The notes beneath the pieces are model-generated. The model worked only from the letters and a program-made list of their open reading frames with translations. It was not told the DNA's origin and made no database searches. A stretch of DNA of 63,231 bases, the filler included, from Stramenopiles sp. TOSAG23-2 (lineage: Eukaryota), in assembly GCA_900128395.1 (NCBI GenBank). It is 10 parts of 10 records of this genome, joined end to end, with 100 filler letters (N's around TTAATTAATTAA, not from the genome) between each part and the next. Parts side by side here need not be neighbours in the genome. Positions count along the whole stretch, not along the records: positions 37,785 to 45,220 come from LT650319.1; 9 more parts are not named here. The stretch is one strand, 5' to 3'. The translations under genes were made by a program, and so were the position numbers. Position 1 is the stretch's first letter. Each line of letters begins with the position of its first letter. Below are positions 37,785 to 46,806 of the stretch, in pieces.

Positions 37785-39030
37785 CTTTATTGATATCAAT
37801 CGATTCTTGACTTAACAATGCATTTACTATATCTGTATGGCCTTTAGAACATGCAAGACAAAGTGGTGTCCAATTATCATCTGAACATACTTTATTGATA
37901 TCAATTGATTCTTGATTTAACAATGCATTTACTATATCTGTATGGCCTTTGGAAAATGCAATATAAAGTGGTGTCCAACCATACTTTGTTGTTGTTTTAT
38001 CAATATCAATCGATTCTTGACTTAACAATGCATTTACTATATCTGTACGGCCTTCATTACATGCCATATGAAGTGGTGTTGCACCAGTTTCTGTATTTGC
38101 TTTATTGATATCAATCGATTCTTGACTTAACAATGCATTTACTATATCTGTATGGACTTGAGAACATGCAGTATAAAGTGGCGTTCCACCATCATTTGTT
38201 GTTGCTTTATTGATATCAATCGATTCTTGACTTAACAATGCATTTACTATATCTGTATGACTTTGAGAACATGCTACATAAAGTGGTGTTCGACCACCAT
38301 CTGTTGTTGCTTTATTGATATCAATATATTCTTGATTTAACAATGCATTAACTATATCTGTATGGCCTTGAGAACATGCAGTATAAAGTGGCGTTCCACC
38401 ATCATTTGTTGTTGCTTTATTGATATCAATCGATTCTTGATTTATCAATGCATTTACAATATCTGCATGGCCTTCTTGACATGCAATATAAAGTGGGGAA
38501 GCATCATTTGTTGTTGCTTTATTGATATCAATCGATTCTTGACTTAACAATGCATTTACAATATTTGTATGACCTTTAAAACATGCAGCATAAAGTGGTG
38601 AACAACCATCATCTGTTCTTGCTTTATTTATATCAATCGATTCTTGATTTAACAATGCATTTACTATATCTGTATGGCCTTGAAAACAGGCACTATAAAG
38701 TGGTGTTCGACCACCATCTGTTGTTGCTTTATTGATATCAATCAATTCTTGATTTAACAATGCATTTACTAAATCTTTATGGCCTTCTTGACATGCAATA
38801 TAAAGTGGGGAAGCATCATTTGTTGTTGCTTTATTGATATCAATCAATTCTTGATTTAACAATGCATTTACTAAATCTTTATGGCCTTCTTGACATGCAA
38901 TATAAAGTGGTGTTTCACCATCATTTGTTGTTGCTTTATTGATATCAATAGATTCTTGAATTATCAATGCATTTACAATATCTGCATGGCCTTCTTGGCA
39001 TGCAATATATAGGCCAGTGCACCCATCAGT
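37785..39030 (-). repeat. Tandem 102/105-bp ankyrin-coding repeats, at least 12 units
   Basis: Repeated (T/S)PLY.AC..GH.DIVNALL.QESIDINKATT with near-identical DNA. Confidence 0.95.
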
Positions 39031-42000
39031 AATGCTTCCGTAGTTAAGTTCTATGTTGCCACTGCCAATCAATAATTTTACACAATCAACATGATTTAAG
39101 CTGCATGCTGTCATTAATGGTGTATCTAGATTTAAATTTTCTTGAGAACCTAAATAAATATTTCTTTTCAATACCCCATCATCAATTAGATACTTCAAAC
39201 ATTTTACAGAGTTGTATTTACATGCCAAATGAAATACATTTTCGCCACCACGCTTATCAGCTTCTACTTGTGCTTTTTCATTATCACACCAAACTGTTTT
39301 CAAAATATCAATAGCATCACATTCGCATGCATAATGTGCAAATGTGCAGCCGTTTGTATCGGCCAGCATTGTGTCAACTTTTAAATTCCATAACATTTTC
39401 ACAATATCAAAATTATGCTCTGAAGCTGCAATAAATACAGGTATATCTTGCGCTAGTGCGTTTCGTATTGGCAATAAATCTATATTACTCAGTGTTTGGC
39501 TAACAGTGCTTTGTTCGTTGTCTTTAAAATGGGTCATTCTCATAATAATAATTCCTTTACATTCCTCCTTTTCATCTTTCCAATGTTCATCGCGTATAAT
39601 ACGAATAGAGGGAAACCATGAATTCACTACATTATTATTAACAGTTTCTGGCAATTGTTGATACACAGTCTCTTGTTTTATATGGGTATTATCTGTTGAT
39701 AATGGAGTGATGTTATATTTGGCTATACCAGAAAGTGGATTGTAGAAACATTCGATTCGATATCGATCAATTGTTTCAATTGCATTTGGTTTATTATTTT
39801 TCTTATGGTTGCATAGGAGCTTACTATCTACAAATTGCATTTGTATTTTGCATTTCCCTGTTTGTAAATCCGGCATACTAATAACTTTACCTATGTTTGT
39901 GTAATCGGATTGAAAGAAATATCGTAAAAATGAAGGAAGATCTAAGTCACCCCATGTATCGCCAAACAATTCTAAAATAGAATTGATTATGTTTTCACTA
40001 AAAGACGTTTCTTCATTTGTATTCAAGGACTTCATAGTATTTTTATTTATATATTCATTTCCTTCGTAAGTTTCCTGCTTCAGTTTCAACCACTTAAAAA
40101 ACTCGGTTGCGCCATACTTTTCTATTGCTTGATAAATACATTGCACTTGTAAATTTTTAGTAAGTTTTAAGTAAGTCTTTAATATTGATGCAGATATTAT
40201 CCCGTTTCCGTTACTGAAACAATTCAGTATTGCATCTACATGCGCATCCTTTAAATCACTGCTTAATGCTGCAAAAAGTGATTTCAGTGAGCTTATATTG
40301 AATTCTTCATTATCACCAAAGGCTTGTTCCAATTTACTGTCATCACAATTTTTGAGTATTGTTTCTATGTGACTAGTCACCGTTTTCATATCCATATCGA
40401 CAAACGAGCCAAATTCTTTTGTACCCTTATCATCTATTTTACAAATAGATTGCTTACACTGTTTACTGAATGAAGATTTTAGTTTAATTTCATCAAACAC
40501 CTTTACATCATTTATTTTTGTATCTTTTACAACATTCAAATTAATATCAAATATACGATTACCATCCGGCCATAACACTTGTTCCCCATACAATGTTTGC
40601 AATATGTCAACATAATCACCAAACGTGTCTTTGTATTCACCATCGGTGGTTCCAGCTATAACGCCAACACAATAATGATCAGCCATAGACCCCGGATATT
40701 TCATTTTAGTAAATGGCTTCAGCATTTCGTCTTGCCTGAATCTAGATGCCCATGAGGTTGACGGTGTCCATCCAACCATCACAACCGCTGCGCAATCATT
40801 GCAATTAATATCAATACTAAACATAAACTCTACTTGATCATCGATTTCTGCAATATTATCTGCTTTTTTTTTCTCTACATTTACCGCCATATCAGGTACC
40901 ATAACTTGTCCAATCCAACCACTATTTTCTTTTAATGTCAACTGCATCTCATCCTTTGAAAATAACACACCTGGTGTTTTTCTGAGTTTAGAGTTGTTGG
41001 ATTTTGTGTCATCTCCTACAACAACAATGTCCAACTTCTTTGTTTTTGCTTTTATCATTTTATCTGCACTTGCCGTCAACAATTCTCTGACACATTCCGC
41101 GTGTCCTGCTTTAGCTGCTACAAATAAGGGTGTACGATCAAATGCATCTTGAATGTCTACATCTAAACTGCCTTTATCTATTTCATTTAAAAATGATATT
41201 GCTCGTTTAATGATATCGCGTTTTCCTATTTTAAATATGTAACAAAAGTAAAAGTTAGTTTTTGTTACTACTACAGAATCAAAATATGTATTTATGTATA
41301 ACTTACCAAACTTTGCCGCTTCATGCAACAACGTACCAGCCCCATCCCGTTTAGGCAATTTTGTCGTATATAAATCTCTCACATTCCCCTCCACCATATC
41401 CAAATCATCTTTACCAAACGGTCTTCCATATGTAGCAACACGTGCAACAATGTCAATCATACGCGGTATTGTGTAATCTTCGCCAACCATGCAATCCACT
41501 AAAAAATCTAATATAGCTTCCTCTGCTCCAATAAATATTCGATTCAATGGCGAACGTTCAATAGCAACAAACATATCAATCAGACGCTTACTATTTCCAA
41601 CATATTTCTGTCGCAGCTGACGTTGTTTTGATGAGTCTTTGTTAGTTGCGTATGTCCTTTCCAACATTTTCAATTTTGCCTCTGCCATCTTTAACTTCGA
41701 CGATGCGTCCTTTGCATCTACAAATAAATTTGCTACTATCTTCCTATCATCACCTGTTGGTCCATGCCCTTCTTTCTCTATAAATGCAGTACGCCAATCT
41801 TTTACTTTATTCCGACAGATTTTCTTTTGCTGTTTTAGCTTACTAATTTGTTCTTTTGCTTGGATTATAGAGTCGCCCAACGATTTAATATATGCTTTTC
41901 GAGATGGTGAACCACCAGGTGATGATGATACAGGGCTTGCCATTGGACTACTTATTACACTTCCGCGTGGAGATAATATTTGTGTTTCTACGTCAATGAT

Positions 42001-45000
42001 CGCATCTGCCATTTTACTAGCTAATTTACTTCGTTCCATATTATTCTGCATAGAATCCAACTCATAATTATTGCTACGCCTTAAATTTTCTATCTTTCTC
42101 ACAAATACATCCAATTCATCTAATGACATCAACGTCTCTTCACATGCATTTTTAATTGCGCGAACAACTTCCGAGGCTGTTAAATACTCTTGGATAGACT
42201 TGTGTATAAATGAAAATATACCAACACCTGGATATTTATATCATGTTAGTCCAAATTTGTTTGTTTTAAAATTCTTTAATGTCATAACTTACCTTTTTGA
42301 ATTGGTGCAACTCGACGTATCATCTCCATCGCCTCGCTAGTACCACCTAAAAATCGTTCCCACCGATTTTCTTCTCTAAATCGATGTTGACCTTCTTCAT
42401 ACCGAACTTTTGTTAAATTTTCTTCTGTCATTTCCAATGCCAATTGCGTTGACAATTCATATGCTTCGTTATTCAATCCATTGACAGATATAGCATTTGT
42501 TTGTTTTCGTCGTGCTTCAGCATCTATATAATGACGGATGAAGGTTTTATATATACGGTATCTATCAACAGGTGTACGTTTTAAAATCTTTAACAATGCA
42601 TTATCTTTCTTCAACATGTCACTTATGTTCTTCTTTAATGCTGTATCTTCGCTATCTGTTTTCTTTTCTACATAAACATCGATCCATTCTTGTATCGATT
42701 TCAAATTGTCTAACATACCATTTTGTTTTATTCTTTGCCACATTTCATCCGCTGTTTTTTTTATTTTCAAATCTTTAAACTTATCAGAATGAATTGCGGT
42801 ACTAAATTTACGCCGCATCGATAAACCTTTCTCTTTGGAATCTCGTTTCTTTTGAACTAATTTGGTAAATGTTGATTCAACATGATGTCGTTCTTTACTA
42901 GCAAAAATAGTTCGTTCCTTGATCCGTGCAGGAGTTGCGCCCATAGCACGAAGTAAATCTATCACATCCGTGCAAATTTTTAACATAAATGGTGTTTTTG
43001 TTAATTCTTCCAATTCACTCATACGTTTAAATGCATCTTGGAATTCTGATATTGGCCATACAATACTACGACCTTTTATGGCTAAATCTTGAATTTGTTG
43101 CCAGCAATTCTTGATATCGGTATCTGTAAATTGATGATTATTTGTGTATAATGTGCTTAACAGTATGGACAATATAAATGCCCGTTGTTTGTCGTTCTGT
43201 TGATTTTTTTCCGATGTAAAACTATCTGTGTGCTTAGCTTGTAGCCTACTTGCAATAGATTTGAGTTGTAAATCATACTTCGAACCAGAGCACTTAGCGT
43301 AAGATAAAAGGTTTTGCAGTTGCACATCTTTGTCTTCCTCATCATCAGAATTAGAATTGTCCTCGTCCTCCTTCTCCTTATCATTATTTGTGGTCTTTCC
43401 ATGTGTATCTTTTTTTCCTTTATCATTTCTTTCTCCCTCACTCAAAACAAAATCGTTCTTATCAACATTTAATACATCACAAATTAAATTTGCAAAATTC
43501 CTTGTAACACGAGCAGCAAAATATTCTTCACGTTGTGTTGTGTCAAAAGATGCAATTAATCGTTCCATCAATAGACCATCTGCTTTTATATCTGTCCCTG
43601 GCCTAAACCATTCACGATATGCATCAGGTTTAGTTGCTAAAAATTCCGTTCGGCACAAATAAATTATCTTAGGAAATAATTTCTTTTGGCCATCATTTTG
43701 TCCAGCAGCTCTTTTTGCAGTGTTTTCAGTCTTTTTCTCTTTCCCATCTCCTGTTTTTGTCTCGTCTGCATTTACATTTTTACTGGCATTTACCTTCTTG
43801 CTATTATCTTCATTTTTAGACTTATTTTCGTATGATTGCTCCTTTACACCCTTAACCATTTCATCACTTGACTTTTTCTTTTCAATTAATTTCTCTACAA
43901 CTGCTTGAACATAATCTTGCAAATCATTTGTCTCGTACAAATTCGATCCAAGATGTTCTTGTCGTAATTCATCATATCCATCCAATACAAATAATGGAAC
44001 AATCGTGCCATTCTCTACCTTCTCACGGAATTCACTTAGTTCTTTTTTCCCTTCACGGCCGAAGATCTGTTTTAATGCGTCATTCACTAAATCCGTTAAG
44101 GGATGTTCTAATGCCGGTAAAGTGCAGAGAAGTGGTAGATAGCATATCGAAGCTTTATCTTCAGTATCACTTGTTACTGCTTTTACAACATTTTTATTCG
44201 TTTCATAATCTTCCCATAATTTATTAATTAAACGTTTTGCAAATGTTGATTTTCCAGCGCCTGTTAAATTGTAGTTAATAATATGTGTTAGTTACTAATA
44301 AAACGGGCGTAATCATAATAAGAATTCCACTTACCAGCCAATCCATGTATCAATAAGGTCGATTTATCACTACCCTTTCCCAAAAACGTTTCCACTTCCA
44401 TCATCAAATCAAACGTATCCGTGCCTAATTTCTTACCAGATTTAATATGAAACGAACCATCTTCATCCCAATCACCACGTTTCCAACATTTTATCGGTAC
44501 ATACACCTCATTTCTCAACTTTTCCCGTTGTTTCTTCTCCCATTTAATATGATATTGCACCGCTTCATCAAACGTTCTTCCAACCAACAATTTCAAATCA
44601 TGTTGCATATCACTCAACGTATCTTGTATTTGATCTAATTTTGCATCCATCTTAAATAATTGATTCTGTAGTCCATCTAGAAAATCTAATACAATACCCA
44701 ATTGCGAGCCTATATTTGTACAATTCGTTAAACATTGCTTTAATTTCTGTTTACTATCAGCATATTGTTGTTTTATCGCAAGTGCTTTTTCACCACCCGG
44801 TTCTTTTTTCTCTGCACTCTCATATGCAACAATTAATTCATCTAATTCTTTCTTTTGCTCATCCATTTCACGTTTTATACGATCTTGTTGTCCTTCCCAC
44901 TTTGCATTCAACGCTTCGTTTACAGCATTTGTAATTTCAGGATGGACTAATAATTGTTGTACCGCTGGATTTGGCTCCATTGCTTTACGCATAACCAATA

Positions 45001-45220
45001 TTGCTTCAATATCATCTTTCATATGTAATGAATCCTCCTTCACATTGGTATCTTGTGCATTAACAATATCATATTTATGTGTACAAAGTTGAACAAACTG
45101 TAAACTGAACCACAACGCTTGTTCTCGTACTCTCCATGCTTCTTTTCTATTTTGTTTTTCATTTGTGTTGTTATTTAAAAACAGTTTTGTACTTTCATAG
45201 ACCATATTTGCTGTAGAGTT
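37785..45220 (-). CDS. NACHT/STAND NTPase with ankyrin repeats (NLR-like); 4 exons: 45220-44335, 44260-42293, 42227-41307, 41225-37785; both ends truncated
   Basis: Splicing introns 44261-44334, 42228-42292 and 41226-41306 joins three ORFs in frame and restores Walker A GLAGAGKST; Walker B LFVLDGYDEL, IIYLCR, KTPFML, FSFIHKSIQEYLTA; C-terminal ankyrins. Confidence 0.9.
41226..41306 (-). other. Spliceosomal intron, 81 nt, in-frame and stop-free
   Basis: GTAAGT...ACTAAC...TAG; removal restores ankyrin LLHEAAKFGKRDII. Confidence 0.8.
42228..42292 (-). other. Spliceosomal intron, 65 nt
   Basis: GTAAGT...ACTAAC...CAG; removal joins APIQKG to VGIFSFIHKS. Confidence 0.9.
44261..44334 (-). other. 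Spliceosomal intron, 74 nt, splitting the P-loop
   Basis: GTAAGT...ACTAAC...CAG; removal gives HGLAGAGKST. Confidence 0.92.
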
Positions 45221-45320: not shown

Positions 45321-45473
45321 ATTCTTATAATAATTTCAAATAACACGTAAATAGAAGAACTTATACAAAATATACTACATATACATATACAAACTCACAT
45401 ATATAGCATTGTATGCATTTGTTGTGCCATATCACTTTAAACAAGTAATACAAAAAATTATTTTTTTTGAAAC

Positions 45474-46806
45474 ATGGAAACAATTAAGTCGATACTTGTT
45501 GGCGGAATTAGTGGTTATGAGCATACCACCACCACTACCAGCACTACAGAGACAAGAAGACCAACTGTTAATTTTATAGCCGTGAAGAAAGATGAATCCA
45601 TCGAGTTTAAAGTAACAAGTCTTATTAATACTAATGATGTGTGGTGTGGTAAATTTATTGGTCAAACAAACTTCAGGAGTGGATCTAGTACTTCTTTAAC
45701 GGATGAGGAAATCCGTCGAAATGTATTTTCCAGTCTAAATAGTGATGTATTTAATAGTAATAATCTTAACAAAATGACTAATGATAATGTAGGTAATTTA
45801 TCAGATTGTATATTATCTTTAAACAATGACAATAATTTACTATTCGAAGGTGAATATAATATTAGTAATGGCATATCGTTTACAGTACGGTGTACTTTGA
45901 CTGTTGCAAACAAAGACGACTATGTTCATTTATTATGCGAACTTTCAGATTGTATTCAAAAACTTGTTTCCACTGTAAATAAATCAACTACAGATACAAT
46001 AAATTTACAAAATGCGTTAACCGACGCTGAAACTACCATGAAAAAGCAACAGGATTGTCTTGCCACACGGGAAAAAAACATGTTGGAAAATTTTGTAAAG
46101 GTGTTGAATAGCAAGAAAGCTAAATTAAAACAATTAAAAGAAGCATTAAATCATAGTTCCAATGACTCTTCAGGCGATAGCCATGGAAACGATTCTTCAG
46201 ACTATAGCGATGGAGATGGTGATAATAATATCAATGGACGTGGAAAATTTTCAAAACCGAGATCAAAAAAAAGAAGGAGAAAGAAGAATGGAAACAATAA
46301 TGATAATAACAAAAAGTCATACGTTAAACCGAAAAAAAAATATCGTCAAAATACAACATCATCAAAAAAAAGTAAATTTAATACGCAACTTGCTCGACAT
46401 AAGAAAACTAATGCTACTGATTCAAGTGAGGAAGAATCATATGTAGGATCATCCAATTTTGTCTTTGATGATGATGAAAACAGTACTCAAATTTTAAGTA
46501 TAGAAAATCCAAGTAGTAACAATAACGCAACTTGCTCGACATAAGAAAACTAATGCTACTGATTCAAGTGAGGAAGAATCATATGTAGGATCATCCAATT
46601 TTGTCTTTGATGATGATGAAAACAGTACTCAAATTTTAAGTATAGAAAATCCAAGTAGTAACAATAATTTGCAGCAAAACATATCATCTCGTCAACAAAC
46701 TACGATTTCCAATACTACTAGCAATGGAGTTAGAAATCATGTCCCAAATGTTGGAAATAGTCAGTTGACTCAAGAAAGCAATGATGTGCTTGATGAGATG
46801 TGGTAA
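45474..46806 (+). CDS. XRCC4: XRCC4-like NHEJ protein; as assembled it stops at 46544 because of a 142-bp tandem duplication
   Basis: Beta-rich head (VWCG), coiled coil and MLENFVKVLNSKKAKLKQL resembling the XRCC4 F..VLN.KK.K.R.L motif; removing one duplicate gives 396 aa ending DVLDEMW*. Confidence 0.75.
46383..46667 (+). repeat. 142-bp direct tandem duplication
   Basis: ACGCAACTTGCTCGAC... starts at 46383 and 46525; copies appear identical. Confidence 0.95.

Follow-up and report, generated by a model that had tools for sequence, protein, structure and literature searches.

A spliced and expressed NACHT-ankyrin gene of Stramenopiles sp. TOSAG23-2 encodes a candidate membrane-tethered receptor

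A 63,231-nt stretch of DNA from Stramenopiles sp. TOSAG23-2 (assembly GCA_900128395.1), called the window here, was analysed for a gene on the minus strand of positions 37785-45220. The gene encodes a giant protein with a NACHT domain and ankyrin repeats, and was confirmed to be real, spliced and expressed. We consider it about an even chance (probability roughly 0.5) that the product is a functional, expressed, membrane-tethered NACHT-type receptor for foreign proteins, belonging to the STAND class (signal transduction ATPases with numerous domains). The host is a stramenopile, as the best named matches of the genome's Arp2 were Hondaea (77%), Triparma and oomycetes, and was inferred to be an uncultured marine heterotroph. 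Work on immunity of the NOD-like receptor (NLR) type covers animals, plants, fungi and bacteria, but scarcely touches the uncultured grazers that eat much of the ocean's bacteria and meet giant viruses. Fungi, corals and bacteria are known to have NACHT-ankyrin receptors.

Positions 37785-45220 are one entire contig (C2903 of genome G000; LT650319.1; 7,436 nt), flanked by N44-linker-N44 spacers, so both ends of the gene are missing. Because the window is a string of unrelated contigs, its neighbouring genes were rejected as context. The four-exon model (Table 1) was translated into 2,405 aa with 0 stops. This agreed with the first-pass annotation of the sequence, which had described a product of >2,400 aa lacking both ends, a P-loop split by an intron, a set of named NACHT motifs and an ankyrin array in an NLR-like layout. 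Half of Walker A was found in exon 1 and was completed by removing intron 1. All named motifs were present in the stated order (Walker A at aa 293, Walker B at 388, LCR at 497, TPFML at 718 and FIHKSIQEY at 958), and Pfam placed 14 Ank stretches in exon 4, with the NACHT switch followed by C-terminal ankyrin repeats in the spliced model. The annotation had also fused three listed minus-strand open reading frames (ORFs; 326, 669 and 1,503 aa) across three introns; only introns 1 and 2 lie between these ORFs, intron 3 sitting inside the third ORF.

All three introns had the form GTAAGT..AG with a CTAAC-type branch site 22-33 nt upstream of the acceptor, and their GC content was 20-27% versus 33-38% in the exons. 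The coding strand of the contig contains just 3 GTAAGT words, and all three serve as intron donors. RNA matches were found in 24 runs, all as small shares; four seawater runs from four studies were examined, and transcript pieces of the gene were present in 4/4. At intron 2, a 375-nt RNA contig omitted exactly the 65 nt, with 142 nt on its shorter side. A loose RNA end at 44258 read on into the exon-1 sequence of a sister copy; this sequence was closer to the paralog on contig C2355 than to the window, indicating that intron 1 is spliced in the sister copy. In these four runs neither a joint at intron 3 nor cover of 39769-40264 was seen, and neither was counted against the model. The splicing that had been predicted from sequence was thus seen in RNA for two of the joints, one of them in the sister copy.

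The intron sites were shared with related contigs: intron 1 with C2355 and the independent metagenome contig L055, intron 2 with C188 and C7443, and intron 3 with C7443 and C2355. Reading through intron 3 in C7443 and C2355 hits a stop, so the intron must be removed there; in the window it lies within the third ORF, keeps the frame and contains no stop, and is therefore supported by the paralogs and not by the window alone. On the P-loop region, a profile of 16 outside NACHTs scored 67.6 bits with the spliced sequence versus 42.0 bits with exon 2 alone.

The P-loop was intact once intron 1 was spliced, and Walker A, Walker B, the sensor-1 Arg, the proline of helical domain 1 (HD1) and the winged-helix His were all intact and in order. 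The sensor-1 Arg (R203) was nearly invariant across 28 family rows, and the HD1 and winged-helix motifs appear to be conserved downstream of the NTPase core in the family alignments. For the gene, the profile of outside NACHTs gave 78.5 bits (E 3e-26). Walker B fits D[GAS]hDE, which is given as the NACHT signature in the accessible text of Kibby et al. (10.1101/2022.07.19.500537). The proposed search with the Pfam NACHT model (PF05729) had a divided result: exon 2 alone reached 15.6 bits versus a gathering score of 26.7, and the first Pfam NACHT search of the genome missed the gene and gave 6 other places, while among 24 scanned relatives 13 passed the cut-off (a lower bound, as 2 results were incomplete), 4 were just under and 5 had none.

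The exon 2 query retrieved 130 relatives among 1.84 billion representatives, and ankyrins were present in at least 15 of the 24 scanned. Species were known for 10 of 25 relative clusters (6 Cymbomonas, 2 Paramecium, 2 diplonemids). In prokaryote genomes, 153 candidates were scanned, of which 7 were confirmed: 2 Mycoavidus, 1 Coxiellaceae, 3 Gammaproteobacteria and 1 Myxococcota bin. The main tree (49 rows, 331 columns; one long branch and 7 duplicates or near-duplicates dropped) held NACHT-type rows only, with no non-STAND outgroup, no named fungal HET-E and no animal NLR. Within it, the gene and C2355 were nested in a 21-row NACHT-ankyrin clade (99/97) with Cymbomonas and unnamed proteins. 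An endosymbiont-type clade (99/99) and Paramecium adjoined this clade in an order without resolution (86/90), and two other NACHTs of this genome lay far from the gene's family. In a mixture-model tree (57 rows, 618 columns) the gene and C2355 were left at the base without placement. The signature, the motif set and the grouping with NACHT proteins support the NACHT/STAND identity that had been assigned; no grouping with a non-STAND family was seen in this tree of NACHT-type rows.

Several other NACHT genes were observed. The genome carries further NACHT-type genes at L001-L005 (G000:C649, C620, C5574, C1524, C4267), at least two of which end in WD40-like repeats. Two relatives, P0004 (from Cymbomonas) and P0035, have two tandem NACHT modules per chain. 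On gammaproteobacterial contig C2 of genome G003, about 16 NACHT matches form one tandem array (~1,142,000-1,217,000) with frames of 1,150-3,000 aa, out of 35 matches genome-wide (L075, L103, L106, L108, L112, L114). Endosymbiont-type NACHT genes (L079-L084) grouping with Mycoavidus on the tree lie on contigs filed as viral, which may be bacterial islands.

The missing 5' part of the gene was found on contig C1271, where the end of an ORF overlaps the first 55 nt of the gene exactly and supplies 757 aa more N-terminal sequence. L055, the one contig confirmed among 59 candidates, encodes a homologous N-terminus joined to exon 1 in a single stretch of 1,073 aa that stops at the same intron as exon 1 of the window; because both lie there in one continuous exon, the join of C1271 to C2903 is confirmed. 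Beyond the overlap, C1271 switches strand and continues as an ankyrin array belonging to the same repeat family, with 86% DNA identity to the window units versus 84% within the window. Its first 38 nt equal the last 38 nt of the window contig. This 38-nt word occurs 4 times in each array, so the 3' join is likely, not proven; if it holds, the full protein has ~3,600 aa or more. The strand flip resembles an amplification chimera, and C2355 has a like flip; among such chimeras >85% were inversions in the accessible part of PMC1855051. Where the N-terminal ORF of C1271 meets its reverse-strand ankyrins, at the inversion junction (L036, 5394-5589), a 98-nt unit is duplicated exactly, which is probably an assembly artefact.

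The recovered 757-aa region is helical and has a myristoylation-type start. Both complete copies begin with Met-Gly, followed by Ser and Lys/Arg, which we take to be the usual myristoylation-plus-basic pattern, and a fatty-acid membrane anchor of the receptor is probable. Among Met-starting long relatives, 7/20 start with MGCG. The N-terminal stretch matched a profile built from six relatives, Paramecium P0058 among them (E 4e-5, probability 70%; score 45 versus a shuffled maximum of 17), and this profile matched a Cymbomonas N-terminal profile at 97%. These links to Paramecium and Cymbomonas indicate a family-wide, unnamed, helical domain. It did not match a 3-sequence Mycoavidus-type profile, and a homolog search among longer proteins, which is weak evidence, returned none for it. 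The AlphaFold model was all-helical and unusable (pLDDT, predicted local distance difference test, 45), and with this model Foldseek gave 0 matches at E<=0.001. No enzyme domain was recognised in the N-terminus. The N-terminal effector that the first-pass annotation expected in the assembly was thus recovered as a region, which proved to be an unannotated helical domain and no recognised effector; it is a candidate new effector. An RTX/haemolysin lead from the ESM Atlas (0.80, among unrelated matches) was not used as evidence. In P0058 (Paramecium sonneborni), a ubiquitin-tail-like LRGG stands directly before a GCG start, and cleavage there could unmask a lipidation glycine.

Diversity among the near-identical ankyrin units was examined in 18 complete units, 10 from the window and 8 from C1271, with 84-89% DNA identity. 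Of their 35 columns 15 were invariant, and diversity was concentrated at helix-1 and hairpin positions. The proportions of nonsynonymous (pN) and synonymous (pS) differences were 0.32 and 0.27 in nine binding-face columns, compared with 0.065 and 0.14 in the remaining columns, that is, pN/pS ~1.2 on the predicted face versus 0.45 elsewhere. At six variable positions of the DARPin type, presumably those randomised in designed ankyrin binders, diversity was exceeded by just 4 of 100,000 random sets. The variation pattern is suggestive of a receptor. Fungal NLR ankyrins vary in a like pattern with positive selection, as described in the accessible text of Dyrka et al. 2014 (PMC4986451).

The 533-aa insert of the gene lies between ankyrin repeats 2 and 3, a site at which several relatives have a SPRY domain (as in the UniRef name for P0157). 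The family SPRY profile matched the SPRYs of this genome at 94.6%. For the insert, no Pfam SPRY match was found, and hhalign showed no significant similarity to canonical or family SPRY profiles. In an ordered-motif test it scored 49 versus 27 +/- 7 for shuffles, of which 0/200 reached 49, and it also beat 25/25 real control stretches; the signal came mainly from three N-terminal blocks, with blocks 2-4 at the expected places and blocks 5-7 not. The insert is therefore a probable degenerate SPRY/B30.2 domain by its site and motifs. It also contains an EF-hand-like pair (hhalign E 4e-4, probability 33%; score 25.5 versus a shuffled maximum of 15.9), whose calcium loop looks degenerate. A homolog search of the insert among longer proteins, again weak evidence, gave none. 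The AlphaFold model of the insert was unusable (pLDDT 33), and an ESM Atlas lead to EF-hands (0.80, under 0.9) was not used as evidence.

Three separate regions of the gene were each covered by three different contigs (C2903 with C2355 and C3313, with C188 and C7443, and with C2355 and C130), indicating at least three gene copies, in line with the paralogs that the first-pass annotation had proposed to count. The ratio of nonsynonymous to synonymous substitution rates (dN/dS) was 0.08-0.11 on the helical and NACHT parts (exon 1: 0.09 versus C2355, 0.11 versus L055), pointing to purifying selection. It was 0.18 for the insert versus C130 and 0.36 for the N-terminus; the comparison of the insert with C2355 was left out as out of frame. 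The ankyrin arrays differ strongly among the three copies, with 78-81% DNA identity for C2355 and degenerate repeats in C130. In C2355 (L024, 4003-6957, minus strand), the reading frame of the paralog's ankyrins continues into a PP2C phosphatase and a cyclic-nucleotide (cNMP)-binding domain, and contig C4073 holds a 95%-identical stand-alone 5' end. The ankyrin-PP2C-cNMP arrangement is a genuine fusion with integrated domains or else an amplification chimera.

An immune or non-self role is suggested by the architecture and the ankyrin variation pattern. The predicted protein would consist of a myristoylation-type start with basic residues, a ~1,000-aa helical region, a NACHT-HD1-winged-helix switch, two ankyrins, the degenerate SPRY/EF-hand insert and a long near-identical ankyrin array. 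By analogy with known STAND biology, it would rest ADP-bound and autoinhibited on the membrane via Gly2 lipidation. A protein that is foreign or altered (from prey, intracellular bacteria or a virus) may bind the variable concave ankyrin face, perhaps with help from the SPRY insert, and binding would lead to nucleotide exchange and then to oligomerisation. Because no enzyme domain is fused, the output would come from the clustered, lipid-anchored N-terminal helical domains, as membrane damage or partner recruitment.

Several points weigh against this receptor. The three copies shown, a lower bound, would be a small family for a receptor repertoire. Ankyrins in general are most variable at the positions found here, and pN/pS on the face is only ~1.2; this falls short of demonstrating positive selection, since pairwise counts are non-independent and the choice of columns was made with the units already in view. 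Internal identity was 92% in the C1271 part and 81% in the window part, against a criterion of >85% across 100 aa in the accessible text of Dyrka et al. (PMC4986451). Myristoylation is a reading of the motif, and the N-terminal ~500 aa had no Pfam match and hence no recognised effector domain. A PDB profile search gave no significant STAND match; the best, NLRC4 (E 0.016), ranked below helicase and Rad24 P-loops.

These points leave room for a possible though rather unlikely alternative, in which the protein is a membrane-anchored STAND scaffold without an immune role, serving for instance flagellar or phagosomal trafficking; its ankyrins would recognise one fixed host partner, and recombination between repeats would keep them homogeneous. 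NPHP3, a myristoylated coiled-coil STAND-TPR protein, and the TANC/NWD proteins are models for such a scaffold. The lack of a toxic or enzymatic domain, the strong purifying selection acting on both the helical and the NACHT part, transcript pieces in all four seawater runs (four studies), the few copies and a pN/pS near 1 on the ankyrin face would all suit it. A scaffold accounts poorly, however, for the patchy distribution of the family, which shows expansions in particular lineages and exchange of C-terminal repeats (ankyrin, WD40, SPRY, MORN), for the strong divergence of the ankyrin arrays among the three copies, and for nearest bacterial kin that are multi-copy NACHTs, including Mycoavidus and a Coxiellaceae genome.

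It is quite improbable that the protein acts as a guard, with the SPRY/EF-hand insert as an integrated bait or tether for a host protein, firing when a pathogen effector disturbs the bait; the PP2C-cNMP part of C2355 would then be a second integrated domain. The insert does sit at a family-conserved site, much enlarged and degenerate here, and the C2355 ankyrins do read through into PP2C and cNMP-binding domains, with the stand-alone 5' end on C4073 only 95% identical. But the insert is under purifying selection (dN/dS 0.18 versus C130) and its SPRY assignment is moderately supported. Moreover, the gene halves of C2355 are joined in opposite orientation, as in the amplification chimeras of PMC1855051 (accessible part), so the PP2C fusion may be an artefact. 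That the gene is itself a pseudogene or a chimeric single-cell assembly of unrelated ORFs, as the fragmented assembly (9,146 contigs) and the inversions in C1271 and C2355 might suggest, is largely refuted by the RNA joints, the intron sites kept in five other contigs, the independent L055, the same NACHT-ANK-SPRY-ANK order in Cymbomonas proteins and dN/dS of 0.08-0.36.

For the preferred receptor reading, the closest known proteins are the NACHT-ankyrin(-SPRY) proteins of Cymbomonas tetramitiformis (KAK3258584.1, KAK3248290.1, KAK3240453.1, KAK3254034.1, KAK3261438.1, KAK3277479.1), which are unannotated and form a multi-copy family there. They share with the gene the NACHT clade (99/97), long inserts in the NACHT, SPRY placed at the same site after the first ankyrin pair, and a long helical N-terminus, theirs often starting Met-Gly. 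They differ in host supergroup, with ~25-35% identity; the insert here is degenerate and about twice as long, and the ankyrin array here is near-identical. On neighbouring branches lie the NACHT-pentapeptide-WD40 proteins of Mycoavidus cysteinexigens and Mortierellomycota and the NACHT-WD40 proteins of Paramecium, which have the same motif set and a long helical N-terminus but WD40 sensors in place of ankyrins. The endosymbiont/Mortierella branch is described in the accessible parts of 10.1101/2022.03.16.484565 and 10.1101/2021.12.02.471044. It has been proposed in print that NACHTs passed repeatedly from intracellular bacteria to eukaryotes; the closeness to endosymbiont NACHTs agrees with this idea but shows no direction.

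Among the relatives found, the closest were the Cymbomonas/unnamed clade and endosymbiont NACHT-WD40 proteins, and not the fungal HET/NACHT-ANK NLRs or tested bacterial antiphage NACHTs that the first-pass annotation had named. The gene resembles fungal NACHT-ANK NLRs in its tripartite layout and in ankyrins that are homogenised yet variable on the concave face and hairpin (PMC4986451, accessible text). The fungal N-termini described there are named effectors (HET, HeLo, PNP_UDP, SesB), whereas none was detected here; the protein is also far larger. With bacterial antiphage NACHTs it shares the signature and a 'hybrid' sensor of repeats plus an extra domain (Kibby et al., 10.1101/2022.07.19.500537, accessible text), but it is eukaryotic, contains introns and has a lipid-anchor motif. 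No tested bNACHT was recognised among the relatives that could be named. In literature searched with few subscription journals, no paper on a protist NACHT-ankyrin clade was found, and the Cymbomonas proteins appeared as database entries only; the accessible parts of PMC9004412 and PMC4083563 held nothing bearing on protist NACHTs.

A wider reading, which we hold to be unlikely, is that the gene is one member of a clade, so far undescribed and spread across supergroups, of giant NACHT receptors with lipid anchors in phagotrophic protists, with surveillance by a diversifying array and a new effector. It is doubtful, though conceivable, that this clade spans stramenopiles and Cymbomonas with kin in ciliates and diplonemids, and was exchanged with intracellular bacteria. 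Its members might, tentatively, survey the plasma membrane or the phagosomal membrane by means of a SPRY domain and an ankyrin array that diversifies itself, and an equally speculative step is that they kill or signal via a new helical, membrane-acting N-terminal effector. Were this wider reading true, cell-autonomous immunity of the NLR type would exist in single-celled ocean grazers. The gene is a complete, spliced, expressed candidate with relatives in cultivable Cymbomonas and Paramecium.

Table 1. Features of the NACHT-ankyrin gene, in positions of the window
Feature	Position	Strand	Remark
Artificial contig linker	45221-45320	.	5' break of the gene
Exon 1, only its 3' portion (aa 1-295 in the window model)	44335-45220	-	Helical/coiled-coil region and first half of Walker A
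Intron 1, 74 nt	44261-44334	-	Phase 1; splits the P-loop
Exon 2	42293-44260	-	NACHT nucleotide-binding domain, HD1, most of the winged helix, long charged inserts
Walker B	43965-43985	-	NACHT D[GAS]hDE signature
Sensor-1 motif	43644-43661	-	Conserved Arg
HD1 proline motif TPFML	42981-42995	-	Within exon 2
Intron 2, 65 nt	42228-42292	-	Phase 1
Exon 3	41307-42227	-	Winged-helix His motif, helical linker, start of first ankyrin repeat
Winged-helix His motif	42184-42210	-	Within exon 3
Intron 3, 81 nt	41226-41306	-	Phase 1; in frame, stop-free
Exon 4	37785-41225	-	
First ankyrin pair	41044-41337	-	Spans intron 3; kept across the family
533-aa insert between ankyrin repeats 2 and 3	39445-41043	-	Probable degenerate, expanded SPRY/B30.2
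Degenerate EF-hand-like pair	40174-40308	-	Inside the insert; hhalign
Ankyrin array	37785-39444	-	Few degenerate repeats, then 12 near-identical units of 34-35 aa
12 near-identical ankyrin units	39018-37785	-	Run off the contig
Artificial contig linker	37685-37784	.	3' break of the gene

Two minor observations were made in the window. In exon 3 (41700-41830, minus strand) a short motif recalls what we take to be FAM13A/Sld2-type helical hairpins; it had no Pfam match, and was present in the paralog C188 and absent from C7443. On the neighbouring, unrelated contig, a direct duplication of ~140 nt lies at 46379-46660, near the end of an ORF (45471-46544) whose N-terminal beta/coiled-coil layout presumably recalls XRCC4/XLF.

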